From Escherichia phage vB_EcoM-RPN226: a stretch of DNA of 64,000 nucleotides. This document shows positions 2,671-63,807 of this stretch, in pieces (positions within the stretch are counted from its first letter, which is position 1; each line of letters opens with the position of its first letter). The stretch lies in the sequence record OL770073.2. One strand, written 5' to 3'. A program made the translations under genes and the position numbers. The notes beneath the pieces were generated by a model. It worked only from the letters and a program-made list of their open reading frames with translations. It was not told the DNA's origin and did not search any database.

Positions 2671-2857
2671 CATTAACGATGAATTCATAGCAAATATTGA
2701 TTACACCGAAGAAGATTCTAGATATGTTGGAATAATTTATATCACATCAAAAGCAGCGCAAGGTGTTGTTTGCATGGCTGAATTTGATGAATACTTTTTA
2801 GATTATGATGATATGATAGAATGGTCTAAAAGATACATTAAAAGGAATCTTTTGTGA
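2594..2857 (+). CDS. hypothetical protein (start probably internal ATG at 2642)
   Basis: ORF ending at HNH gene start; N-terminus (VKFSTFDINDEF) mirrors N-terminus of downstream HNH ORF. Confidence 0.3.
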   Translation: MTHLNHYKIWLYLVLRMHTVKFSTFDINDEFIANIDYTEEDSRYVGIIYITSKAAQGVVCMAEFDEYFLDYDDMIEWSKRYIKRNLL

Positions 2858-3708
2858 AGAATTTTAAACTTGACATTAATGATGAATTTTTAATAAAGGA
2901 ATTAGTTGAAAAATTAGCGTTGAGTGAAGAAGACGCCAAGTCTTACATTAATTTTATTTCTGCGAATTCAACTGTTAAAACTCCAGGTAAAACGGAAGCA
3001 CACCACGTGCTTCCTAAATCAATATTTCCTGAATATTTAAAATCTACATGGAATTTAGTTAATTTAAGTCATTTTAATCATTTTAAAGCACACTTCTTAT
3101 TAGCAAAAGGTAAAAATGGAAAAATGTTAAATGCTTTAAATAGAATGATGTCAGGAAAAACATATAAAAATTTATCTTTAGCCGAAGTTGATTTAATAGC
3201 TGCTGAATATAGTTTTATAAAACAAGATGTAAGTGACACAATATCAAAAAGGCTTCAACAGTATTATTCAAATCCGCAAAATAGAAATGCTGCTAGAGAA
3301 AGGGCATTAAAATATTTTTCAGTAGCAAAAAATAGGAAAGATAATAAAGAAAGATTAAATAATTTTAAAACAAAACAAAAAATTTCAATGGCTTCAAGGG
3401 AATGGTTTAATAACGAAGAAAATAAAATTAAACACCAAAAGGCTGTTCGTGCTGCTTTATCAAAACCTGAATATAAAATAGCTATATCAAATTCAGTAGC
3501 TGCTAGTTGGAAAAATCCGGAGATTAGAAAAGCTCATATAGCATCTCGACGAAAAGGCTATCATTGGGATAATAAAGATAAATTGTATGAATTGTGGATA
3601 TCATATAATCGTCCTAAACATGTAATGTTTAGGAAAATGTTAGTTAAGAATGGATATCCAATAGAGGCTTCATTACAGGCTTTAGTTAAAGAATTTTCTT
3701 CATTGTGA
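2854..3708 (+). CDS. HNH homing endonuclease (Mob-like, free-standing)
   Basis: GTG start after AAAGGA; HNH motif EAHHVLPKS...NLVNLSHFNHFKAH; C-terminal region paralogous to ORF 21476..22126 (YELWxxxNRPK...GYP). Confidence 0.7.
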   Translation: MKNFKLDINDEFLIKELVEKLALSEEDAKSYINFISANSTVKTPGKTEAHHVLPKSIFPEYLKSTWNLVNLSHFNHFKAHFLLAKGKNGKMLNALNRMMSGKTYKNLSLAEVDLIAAEYSFIKQDVSDTISKRLQQYYSNPQNRNAARERALKYFSVAKNRKDNKERLNNFKTKQKISMASREWFNNEENKIKHQKAVRAALSKPEYKIAISNSVAASWKNPEIRKAHIASRRKGYHWDNKDKLYELWISYNRPKHVMFRKMLVKNGYPIEASLQALVKEFSSL

Positions 3709-12710: not shown

Positions 12711-13451
12711 ATGATTAACGATTATATGACAGTTGAAGAAATCCGTCTTGATTTGGGTCTTGCATTAAAGGAAAAAGATTTCGTAATTGATAAAACCGGG
12801 GTTAAAACTATTGAAATTATTGGTGCATCATTTGTAGCAGATGAACCTTTTATTTTTGGCGCTCTTAATGATGAATACATTCAACGTGAACTTGAATGGT
12901 ATAAGTCTCAAAGTTTGTTTGTTAAAGATATTCCAGGTGAAACACCAAAGATTTGGCAGCAGGTAGCATCTTCTAAAGGCGAAATTAACTCGAATTATGG
13001 TTGGGCCATCTGGTCAGAAGATAACTATGCCCAGTATGATATGTGTTTAGCTGAACTTGGTCAAAATCCTGATTCTCGACGTGGTATCATGATTTATACT
13101 CGTCCATCCATGCAGTTTGACTACAATAAAGATGGCATGTCAGATTTCATGTGTACTAATACAGTACAGTACCTGATTCGTGATAAGAAAATTAATGCAG
13201 TGGTTAATATGAGAAGCAATGACTGCTGGGCAGGCTATCGTAATGATTATGCGTGGCAAAAATACGTACTAGATAAATTAGTATCTGATTTGAATGCAGG
13301 CGACCCATCACGACAGTATAAAGCAGGTTCTATTATATGGAATGTTGGAAGTCTTCATGTGTACGAAAATCAGTTTTATTTGGTTGACCATTGGTGGAAC
13401 ACCGGTGAAACCCATATTGCTAAAAAGGATTATACTGGAAAATGGAAGTAA
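12711..13451 (+). CDS. 42: dCMP hydroxymethylase gp42
   Basis: 246 aa, thymidylate-synthase-like fold; matches T4 gp42. Confidence 0.95.
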   Translation: MINDYMTVEEIRLDLGLALKEKDFVIDKTGVKTIEIIGASFVADEPFIFGALNDEYIQRELEWYKSQSLFVKDIPGETPKIWQQVASSKGEINSNYGWAIWSEDNYAQYDMCLAELGQNPDSRRGIMIYTRPSMQFDYNKDGMSDFMCTNTVQYLIRDKKINAVVNMRSNDCWAGYRNDYAWQKYVLDKLVSDLNAGDPSRQYKAGSIIWNVGSLHVYENQFYLVDHWWNTGETHIAKKDYTGKWK

Positions 13452-14083
13452 ATGCGCCACATGTTTATAAGTATAAACATCCTAAAACTAAAAAGTGGTA
13501 TATAGGAAGTCATGATGGTCACAACCCGAATTATGATGGTTCGGGTGTAGTTTGGCAACATGCTAAAAAGAAATATGGAATAAAATCCTTTAATAAAGAA
13601 ATATTATATGAAGGACCAATGTTTAGACAGGTTGAAGAAATTATTTTAACTTGTTTAGATGCTGCTAATTGTCCAGATTCATATAATTTAAAGAATGAAG
13701 CATGGGGAGGAAGTTTTCCAGGCAAATTAAATGGAATGTACGGTAAAAAACTATCTCCAGAAGAAAGATATAAGTGCGGAAATGCCTTTCGTGGAATCAA
13801 GCGTCCTGATCATTCTAAAAGAATGAAAGGCGAAGGTAATCCAATGTATGGTAAAAATGAGCAGGCATATGGAATTATAAATCGAGCAAAGGAAAATTCT
13901 GGTAAAACTTATGAAGAAATTTTTGGCGCAGAAAAAGCTAAAATAATTAAAGAAACGATGTCTAAAAATCGTAAAGGAAAACCTCATAATTTGATAGAAA
14001 AAATATGTCCGCATTGCGGACTAAAAGGACGTGGGCCAAATATGACAAGATACCATTTTGACAAATGTAAGGCACTTAAATGA
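13442..14083 (+). CDS. GIY-YIG homing endonuclease (Seg-like, free-standing)
   Basis: N-terminal VYKYKH...KKWYIGSH (GIY-YIG), basic NUMOD-like repeats, C-terminal CPHCG zinc motif; start overlaps 3' end of gene 42. Confidence 0.6.
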   Translation: MEVNAPHVYKYKHPKTKKWYIGSHDGHNPNYDGSGVVWQHAKKKYGIKSFNKEILYEGPMFRQVEEIILTCLDAANCPDSYNLKNEAWGGSFPGKLNGMYGKKLSPEERYKCGNAFRGIKRPDHSKRMKGEGNPMYGKNEQAYGIINRAKENSGKTYEEIFGAEKAKIIKETMSKNRKGKPHNLIEKICPHCGLKGRGPNMTRYHFDKCKALK

Positions 14084-14999: not shown

Positions 15000-15929
15000 A
15001 TGTCTATTGCAGATTTAAAATCCCGTTTGATTAAAGCTTCCACTTCTAAAATGACTGCTGAACTGACTACATCTAAATTCTTTAATGAAAAGGATGTAAT
15101 CCGTACAAAAATCCCAATGCTCAATATCGCTATTTCCGGCGCGATTGATGGTGGTATGCAGTCTGGTTTAACTATTTTTGCAGGTCCTTCTAAACACTTT
15201 AAATCAAATATGTCTTTGACTATGGTTGCGGCGTATTTGAACAAATATCCTGACGCGGTTTGTCTATTTTATGATAGCGAATTTGGTATTACTCCAGCTT
15301 ATTTGCGATCCATGGGAGTTGACCCGGAACGAGTAATTCATACGCCAATTCAGTCAGTTGAACAGCTGAAAATTGATATGGTGAATCAGCTTGAAGCTAT
15401 TGAGCGCGGTGAAAAAGTTATTGTATTCATCGACTCAATCGGTAATATGGCTTCTAAGAAAGAAACGGAAGATGCCTTGAATGAAAAATCTGTGGCAGAT
15501 ATGACTCGTGCTAAATCACTGAAGTCATTATTCCGTATTGTTACTCCTTATTTTAGTATTAAAAACATTCCATGTGTTGCGGTTAACCATACAATTGAAA
15601 CAATTGAAATGTTTAGTAAAACCGTGATGACAGGTGGTTGTGTTATTGCTGGTACTAAAATCCAGATGTCCGATGGTTCTACTAAAGCAGTTGAAGATAT
15701 TCGCCCGGGTGAACGTGTTAAAACCATGGTCGGTGATAATGAAGTAACTTATGTTTGGGACCCCGAAACTCTGGCTGAAGGTACTCCTGAATGTTTCGAA
15801 ATTGAATTCGAAGACGGTTATAAAGTAACTACTTCTAATACTCATAAATTTCTGGTAATGGTTAAAGACATTCCAACGTGGGTTGAAGCTAAAGACTTAG
15901 TAGCCGGTATGGATTGTGTTGTAAGGTAA
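15000..15929 (+). CDS. uvsX: UvsX recombinase N-terminal part (213 aa) fused to N-terminal half of a split intein (96 aa)
   Basis: residues 1-213 colinear with T4 UvsX up to KTVMTGG; then CVIAGTKIQMSDGS (Hint block A, Cys1) and TTSNTHKF (block B); stop at 15927. Confidence 0.85.
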   Translation: MSIADLKSRLIKASTSKMTAELTTSKFFNEKDVIRTKIPMLNIAISGAIDGGMQSGLTIFAGPSKHFKSNMSLTMVAAYLNKYPDAVCLFYDSEFGITPAYLRSMGVDPERVIHTPIQSVEQLKIDMVNQLEAIERGEKVIVFIDSIGNMASKKETEDALNEKSVADMTRAKSLKSLFRIVTPYFSIKNIPCVAVNHTIETIEMFSKTVMTGGCVIAGTKIQMSDGSTKAVEDIRPGERVKTMVGDNEVTYVWDPETLAEGTPECFEIEFEDGYKVTTSNTHKFLVMVKDIPTWVEAKDLVAGMDCVVR

Positions 15930-16829
15930 ATAAATATGGATACCGGACTAATGTATATTTTGAGGTATCCATATGAATTTTGTCTACAAAATCGTGTTCA
16001 ACAATAGAATTAAAGAAAACACTCCACCGTTTTACTACATAGGAAGCAAAACGAACGCTTCCTATGTAGATGGTAAGATTATAGATTCCAATGGTCATGA
16101 GTACTATGGTTCATCGAGATATCCCGGATATTATGATTTTATCGATAATGTTACGGTGGAAATACTTGAACAATTCGATGAGATAGAACACGCCGAACTA
16201 TTAGAGCGTGAAAATTTTTATCAGAAACAAGTAAAAGTTAAAACAAATCCAGATTATTTTAATTTGGATTATGCATGCGGACATAATTCATATGCTAATT
16301 CTGATTTTGCGTCGTACAAGCATCATATAACAGGCAAATGTATTCGTCTTGAAAGAAACCATCCTCTTGTTAAATCGGGAGAATATGTTGGCGTCACAAA
16401 AGGCGCGAAATGTTCTGATGCTCATCGTAAGCTCATATCAGAAGCTATTACTGGAGAAAACAACGGTTTCTATGGTAAGAAACATTCTAAAGAAACCCTC
16501 GATATAATAGCAGAAAAGGCAAAGAAAAGATTAAAGCATTCCCATCCTAGACAAAAAGGTGTTATTATAAACGGTATTGAATATCGTGGTGTCCGTCCTG
16601 CTGCAAGAGAACTAGGAATTAATCCTAATACAATTATCCGCAAGATTAAAACTAACACTAAAGGCTGGGCTTATGCGGCACAGTGATATTATTAAACTAG
16701 CTACTACGAAACACAAGGTAAAGTATGAAAATTAAATCTGTTAAATCTGTTGGTAAAAAAGAAGTCTATGATTTGTCTGTTGCTGACGTAGAGCATTATG
16801 TTTTAGAAAATGGTATCGTTACACACAAC
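15639..16829 (+). mobile_element. split intein plus embedded free-standing homing endonuclease gene interrupting uvsX
   Basis: N-intein 15639..15926, HEG 15973..16686, C-intein 16725..16829; exteins rejoin to a 393-aa UvsX. Confidence 0.75.
15973..16686 (+). CDS. GIY-YIG homing endonuclease (free-standing, between the two uvsX pieces)
   Basis: own RBS (TGAGGTA) and ATG, different frame from uvsX; FVYKIVF...PFYYIGSK GIY-YIG motif; NUMOD-like FYGKKHSKETL; C-terminal HTH-like GINPNTIIRKIK. Confidence 0.65.
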   Translation: MNFVYKIVFNNRIKENTPPFYYIGSKTNASYVDGKIIDSNGHEYYGSSRYPGYYDFIDNVTVEILEQFDEIEHAELLERENFYQKQVKVKTNPDYFNLDYACGHNSYANSDFASYKHHITGKCIRLERNHPLVKSGEYVGVTKGAKCSDAHRKLISEAITGENNGFYGKKHSKETLDIIAEKAKKRLKHSHPRQKGVIINGIEYRGVRPAARELGINPNTIIRKIKTNTKGWAYAAQ

Positions 16830-17372
16830 ACAGGCGTAATGTATTCGGCTGATACCGTATTCATTATCGGTAAACGTCAGATTAAAGATGGTTCTGATCT
16901 TCAGGGGTATCAATTTGTTCTAAATGTAGAAAAATCTCGTACCGTTAAAGAAAAAAGTAAATTCTTTATTGATGTTAAATTTGACGGTGGTATCGATCCT
17001 TATTCTGGATTGTTAGATATGGCTCTTGAATTAGGATTTGTAGTAAAACCTAAAAATGGTTGGTATGCTCGTGAATTTCTTGACGAAGAAACCGGTGAGA
17101 TGATTCGCGAAGAAAAATCTTGGCGTGCAAAAGATACCAACTGCACTACATTCTGGGGTCCTTTATTTAAACATCAACCATTCCGAGATGCTATTAAACG
17201 TGCTTATCAGTTAGGTGCTATTGATAGTAATGAAATTGTTGAAGCTGAAGTTGATGAATTGATTAACTCAAAGGTTGAAAAATTTAAATCTCCAGAAAGT
17301 AAAAGTAAATCAGCAGCTGATTTAGAAACTGACCTAGATCAGTTAAGTGATATGGAAGAATTTAATGAATAA
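16725..17372 (+). CDS. uvsX: C-terminal half of split intein (35 aa) fused to UvsX C-terminal part (180 aa)
   Basis: MKIKSVKSVGKKEVYDLSVADVEHYVLENGIVTHN (blocks F/G ending His-Asn) then Thr+1 and TGVMYSADTVFIIGKRQ... colinear with T4 UvsX C-terminus; own RBS. Confidence 0.85.
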   Translation: MKIKSVKSVGKKEVYDLSVADVEHYVLENGIVTHNTGVMYSADTVFIIGKRQIKDGSDLQGYQFVLNVEKSRTVKEKSKFFIDVKFDGGIDPYSGLLDMALELGFVVKPKNGWYAREFLDEETGEMIREEKSWRAKDTNCTTFWGPLFKHQPFRDAIKRAYQLGAIDSNEIVEAEVDELINSKVEKFKSPESKSKSAADLETDLDQLSDMEEFNE

Positions 17373-17718: not shown

Positions 17719-19146
17719 GTGGTAGAAATTATTCTTTCTCATCTCATATTTGATCAAGCTTATTTTTCAAAAGTTTGGCCATATATGGATTCAGAATATT
17801 TTGAAAGTGGTCCAGCTAAAAATACATTCAAATTAATTAAATCTCATGTTAATGAGTACCATAGCGTTCCATCTATTAATGCGTTAAATGTTGCATTAGA
17901 AAATAGTTCATTTACTGAAACAGAATATTCTGGTGTAAAAACACTTATTTCAAAACTGGCCGATTCTCCGGAAGACCATAGCTGGTTAGTAAAAGAAACA
18001 GAAAAATATGTTCAGCAAAGGGCGATGTTTAACGCCACATCTAAAATAATTGAAATTCAAACTAATGCTGAGCTTCCTCCGGAAAAACGAAATAAGAAAA
18101 TGCCAGATGTAGGTGCTATTCCTGACATCATGCGCCAAGCATTATCAATTTCATTTGATAGCTACGTTGGTCATGATTGGATGGATGACTACGAAGCACG
18201 TTGGCTATCTTATATGAATAAAGCTCGTAAGGTTCCATTTAAACTCAAAATTCTAAATAAAATTACTAAAGGCGGAGCTGAGACTGGAACACTGAACGTT
18301 TTAATGGCTGGTGTTAACGTTGGTAAGTCATTAGGATTGTGTTCATTGGCAGCAGATTATTTGCAGCTCGGACACAATGTTCTTTACATTTCCATGGAAA
18401 TGGCAGAAGAAGTCTGTGCTAAACGTATTGATGCTAATATGCTTGACGTTTCTCTTGATGACATTGATGATGGGCATATTTCTTACGCTGAATATAAAGG
18501 AAAAATGGAAAAATGGCGTGAGAAATCTACTCTTGGACGTTTAATCGTTAAACAGTATCCTACTGGTGGAGCAGACGCTAATACATTTCGATCGCTTTTG
18601 AACGAATTAAAGCTCAAGAAGAATTTTGTTCCAACAATCATTATTGTCGACTATCTAGGTATTTGTAAATCTTGTCGCATCAGAGTTTACTCAGAAAATA
18701 GTTACACAACTGTTAAAGCTATCGCAGAGGAATTGCGTGCTCTAGCTGTTGAAACCGAAACTGTTCTTTGGACTGCAGCGCAGGTTGGTAAGCAAGCTTG
18801 GGATTCTTCTGATGTTAACATGAGCGATATTGCAGAATCCGCCGGTCTTCCAGCAACAGCCGATTTTATGCTTGCGGTCATTGAAACCGAGGAGTTAGCA
18901 GCTGCTGAACAGCAACTCATTAAGCAAATCAAATCACGATATGGTGATAAGAATAAATGGAATAAGTTTTTGATGGGTGTTCAAAAAGGAAATCAGAAAT
19001 GGGTAGAAATTGAACAAGATTCTACTCCAACTGAAGTGAACGAAGTAGCAGGTTCACAGCAGATTCAGGCTGAACAGAACCGCTATCAAAGAAATGAATC
19101 GGCTCGAGCTCAGTTAGATGCTTTGGCAAATGAATTAAAATTTTAG
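17719..19146 (+). CDS. 41: replicative DNA helicase gp41 (DnaB-like)
   Basis: 475 aa as in T4 gp41; Walker A GVNVGKS; GTG start after AAGGAG. Confidence 0.95.
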   Translation: MVEIILSHLIFDQAYFSKVWPYMDSEYFESGPAKNTFKLIKSHVNEYHSVPSINALNVALENSSFTETEYSGVKTLISKLADSPEDHSWLVKETEKYVQQRAMFNATSKIIEIQTNAELPPEKRNKKMPDVGAIPDIMRQALSISFDSYVGHDWMDDYEARWLSYMNKARKVPFKLKILNKITKGGAETGTLNVLMAGVNVGKSLGLCSLAADYLQLGHNVLYISMEMAEEVCAKRIDANMLDVSLDDIDDGHISYAEYKGKMEKWREKSTLGRLIVKQYPTGGADANTFRSLLNELKLKKNFVPTIIIVDYLGICKSCRIRVYSENSYTTVKAIAEELRALAVETETVLWTAAQVGKQAWDSSDVNMSDIAESAGLPATADFMLAVIETEELAAAEQQLIKQIKSRYGDKNKWNKFLMGVQKGNQKWVEIEQDSTPTEVNEVAGSQQIQAEQNRYQRNESARAQLDALANELKF

Positions 19147-20012: not shown

Positions 20013-20177
20013 ATGAAAACATTTAAAGAATTTATCAAAGAAGATATGGTCGCTGGAGATTCAGGTGGTAATCCTGAAAATATCTCTACTGGAACAACAT
20101 CAGGCGCTGTAGTAAATAAAGGTCCTGAACAGATTCCTAAAAAGAAAAAAGAGGAATCTAAAGAAAAAGAAGAGTAA
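20013..20177 (+). CDS. hypothetical small protein (54 aa)
   Basis: hand-translated MKTFKEFIKEDMVAGDSGGNPENIST...; lysine-rich C-terminus. Confidence 0.3.
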   Translation: MKTFKEFIKEDMVAGDSGGNPENISTGTTSGAVVNKGPEQIPKKKKEESKEKEE

Positions 20178-20179
20178 AA

Positions 20180-21208
20180 ATGTCATCAATACCTTGGATT
20201 GATAATGAGTTTGCATACCGTGCATTAGCTCATTTACCTAAATTCACACAAGTAAATAATAGTTCAACTTTTAAATTGCGGTTTAGATGCCCAGTGTGTG
20301 GAGATTCAAAAACCGACCAGAATAAAGCTCGTGGATGGTATTATGGTGATAATAATGAAGGAAATATTCATTGTTATAACTGTAACTATCATGCACCAAT
20401 CGGAATATATTTAAAGGAGTTTGAACCTGATTTATATCGTGAGTATATCTTTGAAATAAGAAAAGAAAAAGGTAAAAGTCGTCCAGTAGAAAAACCTAAA
20501 GAACTTCCTAAACAACCTGAGAAGAAAATAATTAAATCTCTTCCGTCATGCATTAGATTAGATAAACTGGCGGAAGACCATCCAATTATAAAATACGTAA
20601 AAGCTCGTTGTATTCCAAAGGACAAATGGAAATATCTTTGGTTTACAACCGAATGGCCTAAATTGGTTAATAGCATAGCACCGGGAACATATAAAAAGGA
20701 AATACCTGAGCCTCGTCTTGTTATTCCAATTTATAATGCTAATGGAAAAGCTGAGTCTTTTCAAGGACGTGCATTAAAGAAAGATGCTCCTCAAAAATAT
20801 ATCACCATCAAAGCTTATCCTGAGGCAACAAAAATATATGGAGTCGAACGAGTCAAAGATGGTGATGTATATGTTCTAGAAGGACCTATAGATTCACTTT
20901 TTATTGAAAATGGTATAGCTATTACAGGTGGTCAATTAGACCTAGAAATTGTTCCATTTAAAGATAGACGTGTATGGGTTTTAGATAATGAACCTCGTCA
21001 TCCTGACACTATTAAACGAATGACTAAATTAGTTGATGCAGGAGAAAGGGTTATGTTTTGGGACAAATCTCCCTGGAAATCAAAAGATGTTAATGATATG
21101 ATTAGAAAGGAAGGTGCAACCCCTGAACAAATTATGGAATATATGAGAAATAATATTGCCCAGGGGTTGATGGCTAAAATGCGGCTATCTAAATATGCTA
21201 AGATTTAA
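20180..21208 (+). CDS. 61: DNA primase gp61
   Basis: 342 aa as in T4 gp61; N-terminal zinc ribbon CPVCGDS...CYNC, TOPRIM-like core. Confidence 0.95.
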   Translation: MSSIPWIDNEFAYRALAHLPKFTQVNNSSTFKLRFRCPVCGDSKTDQNKARGWYYGDNNEGNIHCYNCNYHAPIGIYLKEFEPDLYREYIFEIRKEKGKSRPVEKPKELPKQPEKKIIKSLPSCIRLDKLAEDHPIIKYVKARCIPKDKWKYLWFTTEWPKLVNSIAPGTYKKEIPEPRLVIPIYNANGKAESFQGRALKKDAPQKYITIKAYPEATKIYGVERVKDGDVYVLEGPIDSLFIENGIAITGGQLDLEIVPFKDRRVWVLDNEPRHPDTIKRMTKLVDAGERVMFWDKSPWKSKDVNDMIRKEGATPEQIMEYMRNNIAQGLMAKMRLSKYAKI

Positions 21209-21405
21209 ATTAACCCAACTAAAGCAAATGCTAAATCTACGAATGTATCAAGAGTAATTACTGGAATATTAACGCCATGAGCAATAGCAATTGGTGATAA
21301 AACAAAATTCCAGAGTAAAATTCCTATCATAGCAGAAATAGTAAAAGCTATACGTTTTTTATTACCTTTTATGGCATCGACAAGTGCCATTAATTTTTGT
21401 ACCAT
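21205..21405 (-). CDS. small membrane protein (66 aa), opposite strand
   Basis: strong RBS AAGGAGGA upstream on - strand; two hydrophobic segments; convergent with primase. Confidence 0.4.
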   Translation of the reverse strand: MVQKLMALVDAIKGNKKRIAFTISAMIGILLWNFVLSPIAIAHGVNIPVITLDTFVDLAFALVGLI

Positions 21406-21475
21406 ATGTCCTCCTTATTGCTTTATATATTTATTGTATAATTAATCTATTAACCCATGAATTGAAAGGATATAT

Positions 21476-22126
21476 GTGAATTACCAAAAAATTTACTCGG
21501 CTTTAATTACAAAAGCTAAATGCCGGCATCTTGGCGGATATAAAGAACGCCATCATATAATTCCTAGATGTATGGGAGGAGCAGATGGCAAAAACAATCT
21601 TGTTGAGTTAACTGCGCGTGAGCATTTTATAGCTCATAGATTATTAACTAAAATATATCCAGATGTGAGAGGATTGCATTATGCTGTAAATTTAATGCGA
21701 TATAATAAAGGTGTTAAATTAACAAGTAGATTAATAGAAACCCTTAAAATCCAAAACTCTGTTCTTTTCTCGGGTGAAAATAATCCTAGATATGGCAAGC
21801 CGTCATGGATTAAAGGTAAAAAGACTCCAGAAGAAACTAAAGCCAAAATGCGTCTAGCTCATAAAGGTAAAATTATATCCGATGAAGCCAAGGCTAATAT
21901 GAGTAAAGCCCGAAAAGGAAGATTTAGCGGTAAAAATTCGCCTCGATATGGTTTACCAAATCCTAGGCGAGGAGAAATATGGAATAGTTATGATGCGCTT
22001 TATGAATTATGGGTTTATAATAATAGACCTAAGCGCACAAAATTTAATAAAATAGCTGTCAAGGCAGGTTATCCTAATATCTGCTATAGACATATGATAG
22101 AAAACTTCATAAGAAAGGAAAAATAA
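21476..22126 (+). CDS. HNH homing endonuclease (Mob-like, free-standing)
   Basis: GTG start; HNH motif ERHHIIPRCMGG...NLVELTAREHFIAH; NUMOD-like repeats; paralog of ORF 2854..3708. Confidence 0.7.
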   Translation: MNYQKIYSALITKAKCRHLGGYKERHHIIPRCMGGADGKNNLVELTAREHFIAHRLLTKIYPDVRGLHYAVNLMRYNKGVKLTSRLIETLKIQNSVLFSGENNPRYGKPSWIKGKKTPEETKAKMRLAHKGKIISDEAKANMSKARKGRFSGKNSPRYGLPNPRRGEIWNSYDALYELWVYNNRPKRTKFNKIAVKAGYPNICYRHMIENFIRKEK

Positions 22127-22127
22127 C

Positions 22128-22646
22128 ATGCCACATTTCAACGAATGTTCGCAACTGATCGAAGGCGCTGATAAAGCTCAAAATGAATACTGGGATATTC
22201 TCGGTGATGAAAAAGACCCACTGCAGGTTATGCTTGATATGCAGAAATCTTTGCAGGTTCGTTTAGCTAAAGATAAACCTGAATATAACCGTCATCCTGA
22301 TGATTTGGCTACTGCAGGCGAAGTTGTTGATTGGCTGCGTAATCAGAAAGATTACATTGATGATGAATTCCGTGAACTTCTGACTTCTCTTGGTGGTATG
22401 AGCAATGGTGAAAAAGATGCATCTGCTGTATGGAAGCCTTGGAAGTCGCAGCATGGTGAACGCCGTGAAACTCTAATTACTGATTTGTCTCCTCAAGACC
22501 AGTTGGAAATTAAATTCGAAATGATTGATATTCTTCATTTCGTTCTGAACATGTTCCAAGGTCTCGGCCTTACTGCTGAAGAAATCTTTAAACTTTATTA
22601 TTTGAAGAATGCTGAAAACTTCGCTCGTCAAGATCGAGGTTATTAA
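22128..22646 (+). CDS. 56: dCTP/dUTP pyrophosphatase gp56 (MazG-like)
   Basis: 172 aa, matches T4 gp56. Confidence 0.9.
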   Translation: MPHFNECSQLIEGADKAQNEYWDILGDEKDPLQVMLDMQKSLQVRLAKDKPEYNRHPDDLATAGEVVDWLRNQKDYIDDEFRELLTSLGGMSNGEKDASAVWKPWKSQHGERRETLITDLSPQDQLEIKFEMIDILHFVLNMFQGLGLTAEEIFKLYYLKNAENFARQDRGY

Positions 22647-61095: not shown

Positions 61096-62479
<1,384 letters not shown>

Positions 62480-63495
62480 TAATTTAGGCCTAGGTATAAG
62501 GTGACTTATACTTGTAATCTATCTAAACGGGGGACCTCTCTAGTAGACAATCCCGTGCTAAATTGTAGGACTACCCTTTAATAAATACTTCTATATAAAA
62601 AGAGGTGTTTATGAAAAGCGGAATTTATCAGATTAAAAACACTTTAAACGGTAAAGTGTATGTTGGAAGTGCTAAAGATTTTGAGAAAAGATGGAAGAGA
62701 CATTTTAAAGACCTTGAAAACGGTGTTCACTCTTCTATAAAATTTCAAAGGTCTTTTAATAAACATGGTAATGTTTTTGAATGCTCTGTACTGGAAGAAA
62801 TTCCATATGAGAAAGATTTGATTATTGAACGAGAAAATTTTTGGATTAAAGAGCTAAATTCTAAAATTAATGGATATAATATTGCTGATGCGTCTTTTGG
62901 CGATGTGCTTTCAAATCATCCATTAAAAGAAGAAATTGCTAAGAAACGAGCTGAAACTGTTAAAGCTAAGATGCTTAAGCTTGGTCCTGATGGTCGGAAA
63001 GCTCTTTATGGTAAACACGGAAGTAAAAATGGCCGATGGAATCCAGAAAACCACAAGTTTTGTAAATGCGGTGTTCGCATACCATCTTCGGCTGATACTT
63101 GTGGAAAGTGCCGAAAACGTTCAGGTGAAAATAACCCGTTCTTTAATCACAAACATTCAGAAAAAACTAAAACTAAACTATCTGAAAAGATGAAAGGCAA
63201 AAAGCCAGCTAACATCAAAAAGATTTCATGCGATGGGATTATTTTTGAATGTGCAGCCGATGCGGCTAGACATTTTGAAATTTCATCAGGATTAGTTACT
63301 TACCGTGTAAAATCTGATAAGTGGAATTGGTTCTACATAAATGCCTAACGACTATCCCTTTGGGGAGTAGGGTCAAGTGACTCGAAACGATAGACATCTT
63401 GCTTCATCAAGATGGAGATATAGTCTGATCTGTATGGTGACATGCAGCTGGATATAATTCCGGGATAAGATTAACGACCTTATCTGAACATAATG
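62480..63495 (+). ncRNA. group I self-splicing intron in td (1016 nt)
   Basis: starts UAAUUUAGGCCUAGGUAUAAGGUGACUUAUACUUGUAAUCUAUCUAAACGGGG, ends with G before exon 2 CUUCCAUUC; same length and boundaries as the T4 td intron as I recall it; contains I-TevI ORF. Confidence 0.8.
62611..63348 (+). CDS. intron-encoded GIY-YIG homing endonuclease I-TevI
   Basis: 245 aa from MKSGIYQIKNTLNGKVYVGSAKDFEKRWKRH; zinc finger CKCG...CGKC; C-terminal HTH; RBS AAAGAGG. Confidence 0.9.
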   Translation: MKSGIYQIKNTLNGKVYVGSAKDFEKRWKRHFKDLENGVHSSIKFQRSFNKHGNVFECSVLEEIPYEKDLIIERENFWIKELNSKINGYNIADASFGDVLSNHPLKEEIAKKRAETVKAKMLKLGPDGRKALYGKHGSKNGRWNPENHKFCKCGVRIPSSADTCGKCRKRSGENNPFFNHKHSEKTKTKLSEKMKGKKPANIKKISCDGIIFECAADAARHFEISSGLVTYRVKSDKWNWFYINA

Positions 63496-63807
63496 CTTCC
63501 ATTCAACATTGCATCATATGCTGCGTTGGCTCATATTGTAGCTAAGATGTGTAATCTTATTCCAGGAGATTTGATATTTTCTGGCGGTAATACTCATATC
63601 TATATGAATCACGTAGAACAATGTAAAGAAATTTTGCGTCGTGAACCTAAAGAGCTTTGTGAACTGGTAATAGGCGGATTGCCTTATAAATTCCGCTATC
63701 TTTCTACTAAAGAACAATTGGAATACATTCTTAAACTCAGGCCTAAAGATTTCGTTCTTAAAGGTTACGAATCACACCCTCCTATTAAAGGAAAAATGGC
63801 GGTGTAA
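63496..63807 (+). CDS. td: thymidylate synthase, exon 2 (103 codons)
   Basis: LPFNIASYAALAHIVAKMCNLIPGD...; exon1+exon2 = 286 aa as in T4 TS. Confidence 0.9.
   Translation, partial: LPFNIASYAALAHIVAKMCNLIPGDLIFSGGNTHIYMNHVEQCKEILRREPKELCELVIGGLPYKFRYLSTKEQLEYILKLRPKDFVLKGYESHPPIKGKMAV

Follow-up and report, generated by a model that had tools for sequence, protein, structure and literature searches.

The 64 kb of DNA analysed here (64,000 nucleotides of Escherichia phage vB_EcoM-RPN226, sequence record OL770073.2; hereafter the window) belong to the genus Tequatrovirus, with approximately 95-98% identity to many isolates in megablast searches, and are collinear with phage T4 in the orientation of the T4 minus strand. 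Gene 41 (17719-19146) is followed by dmd, 61.4, sp and 61.1, by the primase gene 61 (gp61; 20180-21208) and, further downstream, by gene 56 (22128..22646, + strand), whose product, the dCTPase/dUTPase gp56, is recognized by the Pfam model dUTPase_2 and by the annotations of its homologs. Gene 61.2 is missing from the window, in which sp extends to 20000 and 61.1 begins at 20013; at this position T4, ELT1 and G50 possess a 627-bp gene 61.2, and WL-3 and HY01 an ORF of 357 bp.

An earlier note on this DNA had described, between genes 61 and 56, a 216-aa HNH endonuclease gene with an HHIIPR...N...EH motif and a GTG start, together with a small ORF on the opposite strand. The endonuclease gene (21476..22126, + strand) is exactly as claimed, and its stop codon adjoins the start of gene 56 in the arrangement TAA-C-ATG. 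The opposite-strand ORF is present as well (21205..21405, - strand): it encodes a hydrophobic protein of 66 amino acids, possesses a strong AAGGAGG ribosome-binding site, and overlaps the end of gene 61 with its stop codon. It matches phrog_2024 (E=2.4e-30) and is intact in T4 (positions 3239-3439 of our T4 locus L004), with six conservative amino-acid changes. The T4 RefSeq record contains no annotation in the spacer between 61 and dam in which this copy lies; annotated homologs are found in ELT1, WL-3, G50, Dhakavirus VR5 and Klebsiella phage Mexia. Probably, this ORF is a real gene for a small membrane protein. In IME537 an additional ORF of 186 aa (locus L005, 1621-2181) lies between the 66-aa ORF and dam, so that the 61-56 interval can be regarded as a variable slot with up to three optional genes, i.e. 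the 186-aa ORF, dam, and the HNH gene.

The HNH protein and its relatives

The reading frame of the HNH ORF opens past the TGA at 21458-21460, and the GTG at 21476 is its first start codon; the N-terminus that results, MNYQKIY, is shared with T4 MobE. An out-of-frame ATG-TGA start-stop pair (ATGTGA, 21474-21479) overlaps this GTG, and such a mini-frame could dampen translation of the HNH gene. The HNH signature ERHHIIPRCMGG..NNLVELTAREHFIAH is intact, with the protein reading HHIIPR..NNLVEL..EHFIAH, and an alignment of 54 family sequences, drawn from more than 3000 homologs, shows no variation at E24, H26, H27, P30, N41, H50 or H54. The catalytic motif of the HNH homing endonucleases of the T4 Mob group – a histidine as general base, an asparagine, and a metal-binding histidine – is present, as is a modular DNA-binding extension of the kind found in this group (NUMOD-type repeats or HTH). 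The protein is assigned to PHROG 655 (phrog_655, 'homing endonuclease'; E=3.7e-59), is matched by the Pfam model NUMOD3 above its gathering score (7.4e-07) and by the Pfam HNH model below threshold (E=0.036), and shares, in its nuclease domain, 63% identity over 82 aa with T4 MobE (E=2e-33). Identical proteins, e.g. those of G50 and fPS-2, are already named 'homing endonuclease' in RefSeq. A search of NCBIfam gave nothing useful, and a sequence search of the PDB returned marginal matches to HNH domains only, with E values of at least 0.15.

The order of domains is an HNH nuclease (residues ~20-60), NUMOD3 repeats (~100-160), and a C-terminal three-helix module (~169-215). The AlphaFold (AF2) model, with a pLDDT of 83, is extended and modular; it predicts a beta-beta-alpha unit at residues 24-60 (strands 24-27 and 42-45, helix 47-60), helical repeats, and the C-terminal module, which is presumed to bind DNA. 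Fold searches with this model gave weak local matches to HNH domains and to Myb-like three-helix DNA-binding domains; in the Foldseek search of the PDB none reached E<=0.001, the top local matches being the HNH domains of Cas8-HNH and IscB.

The second HNH ORF of the window (2854..3708, + strand; 284 aa) lies between gene 47/46.x and gene 46 and belongs to the same PHROG (phrog_655, 'homing endonuclease'; 3.2e-45). BLASTP aligns the two proteins at 28% identity over 243 columns (E=7e-13), and the C-terminal block LYELW..NRPK..GYP, common to both, is ~54% identical. The paralogy and the shared C-terminal block that had been proposed for the pair are thereby borne out: by alignment, ORF 2854..3708 is a true but distant paralog of the 216-aa ORF. 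The 862-bp segment that holds it is absent from G50, and the ORF is found in 70 phage records, including that of T2.

Among known systems, I-HmuI and I-HmuII are intron-encoded HNH nicking endonucleases of Bacillus phages in which the HNH nuclease is followed by NUMOD-type DNA-binding modules, arranged like beads on a string, and the protein of the window resembles them in this architecture. Its gene, unlike that of I-HmuI, is not intron-encoded, and no significant match to I-HmuI was obtained in the PDB sequence and fold searches. T4 MobE is a free-standing HNH homing endonuclease encoded between nrdA and nrdB (Wilson & Edgell 2009, PMC2790892). In addition to the similar nuclease domain and N-terminus, the two have in common that they are free-standing, that the promoter of a neighbouring gene is needed, and that they are polymorphic for presence and absence among T-even phages. 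The differences are a C-terminal region (NUMOD3 repeats plus the LYELW..NRPK..GYP module) unrelated to that of MobE, and a location upstream of gene 56 instead of in the nrdA/nrdB interval. Furthermore, the internal terminator and the RBS-masking hairpin of mobE have no counterpart here: a generic promoter and terminator scan returned no more sites than in shuffled sequence and no internal terminator on the + strand, and folding did not support an RBS-masking hairpin at the HNH start (z=0.08). T4 SegF, a GIY-YIG endonuclease encoded between 56 and soc, targets gene 56 (PMC2988022, Table 1). It resembles the HNH gene in being a mobile endonuclease that adjoins gene 56 and is accompanied by localized differences in gene 56, but it belongs to a different nuclease family and flanks gene 56 on the opposite side. 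The 56-soc interval of the window contains no SegF; Klebsiella phage Mexia possesses both SegF and the HNH gene.

The insertion site upstream of gene 56

The HNH gene resides in an insert of 650 bp between two GAAAGGA repeats, which are themselves 650 bp apart. The left repeat (21463..21469, + strand) is the original ribosome-binding site of gene 56 and now that of the HNH gene; the right repeat (22113..22119, + strand), which forms part of the HNH coding sequence near its 3' end and precedes the gene-56 ATG by 8 nt, constitutes the replacement ribosome-binding site. At the left repeat, HNH-free genomes read TTGAAAGGAAAAATA-ATG(56). In general form, cassette-free genomes contain …ATGAATTGAAAGGAAAA(A/C)TA-ATGGCT(T/C)ACTTTAATGAATG…, where the ATG is the start of gene 56, and cassette-bearing genomes contain …ATGAATTGAAAGGA-TATAT-GTG…(HNH)…AAGAAAGGAAAAATAAC-ATGCCACATTTCAACGAATGT…. 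The HNH-free contig L014 reads TTGAAAGGAAAAATAACATGCCACAT and corresponds exactly to the empty-site form.

A promoter-like element, ATTGCTTTA-N11-TATAAT (21417..21442, + strand), is homologous to the dam-56 intergenic region that drives gene 56 in T4; it is aligned with T4, ELT1 and HY01, and it fits the consensus of MotA-box middle promoters. Based on these alignments it probably acts as a promoter; a generic sigma-70 scan did not flag it. As far as the compared sequences indicate, the cassette takes over both this element and the ribosome-binding site of gene 56.

The cassette does not travel alone. Gene 56 of the window differs from that of HY01 by seven mismatches in nt 1-21 and by only about six in the remaining ~490-498 nt, a significant clustering (Fisher p=9e-8 for a 21/498-nt split), and is HY01-like from nt 22 onward. 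The first 21 nt of gene 56 in the window (22128..22148, + strand; ATGCCACATTTCAACGAATGT), and the first 24 nt in the other HNH-bearing phages, are identical to the allele of Klebsiella phage Mexia, i.e. a donor-type 5' end. Such a tract would look like a short co-conversion tract. Scans of IMG/VR and of GenBank phages also recovered this allele from cassette-free sequences, namely the IMG/VR contigs L013 and L014 and about seven isolates. L013 has a Klebsiella-type backbone, to which the allele appears native; the sequence of L014 could reflect either a deletion of the cassette between its repeats or an ancestral empty site. The tract may thus derive from the flank of a donor or mark a past loss of the cassette. 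The idea of an immunity allele exclusive to HNH-bearing genomes was downgraded for the same reason: as the allele is also found without the cassette, a change of immunity is not proven.

In the T4 RefSeq record, oriA is annotated 22 nt inside gene 56 (T4 record position 16763), with a transcript of gene 56 as primer RNA. In cassette-bearing phages the 650-bp insert lies between the promoter of this primer and the origin point, and the co-travelling tract of 21-24 nt covers the point itself. With the promoter that T4 RefSeq assigns to the oriA primer upstream of the cassette, and the annotated point inside the tract, one may conceive an endonuclease that nicks an origin-proximal site and couples its homing to origin-dependent replication or recombination, the exchanged gene-56 codons being a self-immunity allele from Klebsiella phages. 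We regard this elaborate scenario as very unlikely.

The dam-less junction

In the T4 RefSeq record the gene order is 61, a 309-bp spacer, dam, 56, segF and soc, in agreement with the T4 map on which the earlier note had based its expectation of dam in this neighbourhood. T4 Dam, a D12-class GATC N6-adenine methyltransferase, has its gene at this locus in T4, T2 and ELT1; in the window the gene is absent. Queries with the Dam proteins of T4 and ELT1 found nothing in the 64 kb (tblastn, best E 3.5; positive control ELT1, 1e-175), and dam DNA matched the flanking spacers only (blastn). None of the ORFs of at least 80 aa in the window pairs [DNS]PP[YFWH] (motif IV) with an FxGxG-like AdoMet motif (motif I); motif IV is present in just two short ORFs (as SPPF or DPPF), both without an FxGxG-like motif. 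Those segments of the window that are missing from the methylase-free phage G50 code for endonucleases, tail-fibre proteins, uvsX pieces and the td region only, and Pfam revealed no methyltransferase among the window-specific ORFs. Both similarity to T4 Dam and an ORF combining motif IV with FxGxG, as would be expected of a D12-class N6-adenine DNA methyltransferase, are lacking in the window; the observation that the 64 kb encode no methyltransferase-like protein has thus withstood motif scan, tblastn and Pfam alike.

For the remaining ~100 kb of the genome, we infer the absence of dam from relatives. G50 (NC_054917), chosen as whole-genome comparator over WL-3, whose annotation looked fragmented, is complete, shows the identical 61-orf66-HNH-56 arrangement, and encodes an HNH protein 100% identical to that of the window. 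No methyltransferase is annotated in G50, where Dam as a tblastn query reaches no better E than 0.75; a dam gene elsewhere in the genome, by which the earlier note would have stood corrected, is consequently not found in this close relative. T4-type dam DNA occurs at 185 places in 184 GenBank phage records, essentially one place per record, and wherever the context was examined in dam-bearing genomes (T4, ELT1, IME537) this place is the 61-56 interval. That so much of the genome lies beyond the window leaves room for Dam or another DNA methyltransferase to be encoded there, but in view of G50 and of the fixed position of dam we consider it extremely unlikely. If the remaining genome resembles that of its closest relatives, there would be no phage-encoded GATC adenine methylation in the DNA of this phage.

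The dam-less junction is located at 21416..21417: to its left lies sequence of the T4 61-dam spacer, to its right a single promoter region. At this site T4 and ELT1 hold ~880 bp, consisting of dam and its upstream region. The T4 spacer matches window positions 21208-21416 at 92%, and the dam-HNH spacer of ELT1 matches 21417-21476 (blastn). Sequence shared with T4 stops at 21416 (…CATATGTCCTCCTT), and ATTGCTTTATATATTTATTGTATAAT… follows directly. This junction, CCTCCTT followed by ATTGCTTTATATATTTATTGTATAAT, is identical in the window and in the HNH-free phage HY01. With a 140-nt probe across the junction, 497 GenBank phage records were surveyed: the probe is fully covered, i.e. the record is dam-less, in 322 of them, and covered only up to the break in 175. 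The dam-less state is therefore the majority among sequenced relatives (322/497; dam in ~180). According to a 2026 survey, the Dam-like gene of T4 is common to only some Tequatrovirus isolates (PMC13390438).

The position of the HNH gene in the window, roughly where T4 has dam, invites the interpretation that the cassette displaced dam, its insertion or homing having deleted the methylase gene. The distribution of the two genes already contradicts this interpretation, and we assign it a near-negligible probability. T4 has dam and no HNH gene; ELT1 and IME537 have both; HY01 has neither and shares nevertheless the dam-less junction of the window; the window, WL-3 and G50 have the HNH gene and no dam. 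Where both genes occur, dam is intact and the cassette follows it, occupying the usual RBS/ATG point of gene 56, and ~290 dam-less records are without HNH. Since all four combinations exist, the HNH gene did not displace dam, and any tie between the absence of dam and the presence of the endonuclease dissolves.

A simple deletion of dam by recombination between the dam and 56 promoters was also considered but gained no support: the dam-less promoter is just ~77% like that of T4, and no obvious hybrid is seen. Dhakavirus VR5, Klebsiella phage Mexia and contig L013 also lack dam at the 61-56 locus, for which reason the sequence evidence leans toward an acquisition of dam in a T4/T2 sub-lineage.

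GATC is the most depleted 4-bp palindrome of the window, with an observed/expected ratio of 0.31 (71 vs 226). G50, which lacks dam, has a ratio of 0.38, and for 17 kb of dam-bearing T4 (loci L004 and L015) it is ~0.36. Because dam-less and dam-bearing DNA are similarly depleted, the depletion does not track the dam status of the phage.

Probable homing and spread of the cassette

A total of 58 GenBank phage records contain the cassette, the HNH gene being identical or nearly so and annotated as 'homing endonuclease', and in each of them it immediately precedes gene 56; its hosts are Tequatrovirus members, Dhakavirus VR5 and 22 Klebsiella T4-like phages. The insertion site between the RBS and the ATG of gene 56 is the same across all cassette-bearing genomes examined; it is empty in T4, HY01, L013 and L014, and the cassette is absent from most other relatives. 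As in the Mob group of T4, we are dealing with a free-standing gene that shows presence/absence polymorphism at one site in otherwise collinear genomes. Within Tequatroviruses, HNH genes are 99.2-100% identical, compared with 92-98% for the flanks; between the window and Klebsiella phage Mexia, identity amounts to 90% for HNH, 67.5% for gene 61 and 72% for gene 56. The HNH gene of the window is the same as that of G50, while the flanks of the window are closest (98.5-98.8%) to HNH-free HY01. An element more conserved than its flanks and accompanied by co-converted markers, i.e. horizontal spread as in the Mob group, is what these comparisons yield, and conservation of HNH far beyond the flanks is, at the sequence level, a signature of homing. 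That the gene is conserved across diverged backgrounds and genera speaks for recent horizontal spread rather than decay.

Conservation of this extent also bears on the question of whether the HNH gene is still active. A stranded or domesticated copy which no longer homes may be inactive, may exclude the gene 56 alleles of competitors, or may nick near the oriA-equivalent region. Defunct endonucleases such as I-TevIII exist in T4 (PMC2988022), the cassette-linked gene-56 allele exists without the cassette, so that loss of the cassette may occur, and the GTG is a weak start that overlaps the ATG-TGA mini-frame. We nevertheless hold a stranded copy to be unlikely: the ORF is intact, all catalytic residues are kept, and the gene is 99-100% conserved where flanks differ by 2-8%, and 90% conserved across genera with flanks at ~70%.

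Hence, we are fairly confident that the 216-aa ORF encodes a free-standing homing endonuclease of the T4 Mob (HNH) type, carried in a 650-bp cassette upstream of gene 56, and that the absence of dam is a separate matter. The cassette separates the original ribosome-binding site of gene 56 from its ATG, and the GAAAGGA copy in the 3' end of the HNH gene would keep gene 56 translated. In a mixed infection, by analogy with MobE and I-HmuI, the enzyme would nick or cut a cassette-free genome around the start of gene 56, and recombinational repair from the cassette-bearing genome would copy in the cassette together with a few flanking nucleotides. Site-specific nicking or cleavage and homing by the 216-aa protein are proposed on the model of MobE, a homing endonuclease shown by experiment to nick the neighbouring gene in a strand-specific manner and to be inherited at high frequency in dependence on its HNH function (PMC2790892), and of the mobile elements of T4 reviewed in PMC2988022. 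Independently of these steps, the phage is one of those T4 relatives, the majority, in which a single promoter and no dam are found between genes 61 and 56.

Other putative mobile elements are present in the window. The uvsX gene appears to be fractured in a split-intein-like arrangement (15000-17372, + strand), which consists of a RecA/UvsX N-part with a Hint N-half (15000-15929, + strand), a free-standing NUMOD3 endonuclease-like gene (15973-16686, + strand), and an intein C-terminal block (..VADVEHYVLENGIVTHNT) followed by the UvsX C-domain (16725-17372, + strand). The Hint and intein matches of Pfam in the uvsX pieces are sub-threshold. G50 lacks this segment, and only 12 out of 459 related phage records cover it in full, their annotations listing two recombinase CDS and a homing endonuclease. 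An ORF of 213 aa (13442-14083, + strand) in the neighbourhood of gene 42 and beta-gt is likewise absent from G50 and without a Pfam match; its N-terminus, KKWYIGSHDG, looks seg/GIY-YIG-like. Finally, an intron interrupts the td gene (61931-63807, + strand) and encodes I-TevI (62605-63348), in which GIY-YIG, I-TevI zinc-finger and DNA-binding domains are recognized; G50 lacks this td segment, too.

Both the HNH gene in this slot and the dam polymorphism are already known, common variations among T4 relatives, and the nucleotide-level anatomy of the insertion and the contrast in conservation across genera are modest additions. The comparison resolves the insertion site to the base and distinguishes empty-site, filled-site and possible footprint alleles; beyond such book-keeping, the locus offers little more than one further case of endonucleases moving among T4-type genomes and making them mosaic. 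The absence of dam is usual in this phage group and should not be read as an endonuclease-linked loss. In a phage without a Dam of its own, any GATC methylation depends on the host, which bears on the sensitivity of the phage to m6A-dependent or m6A-blocked host defences.
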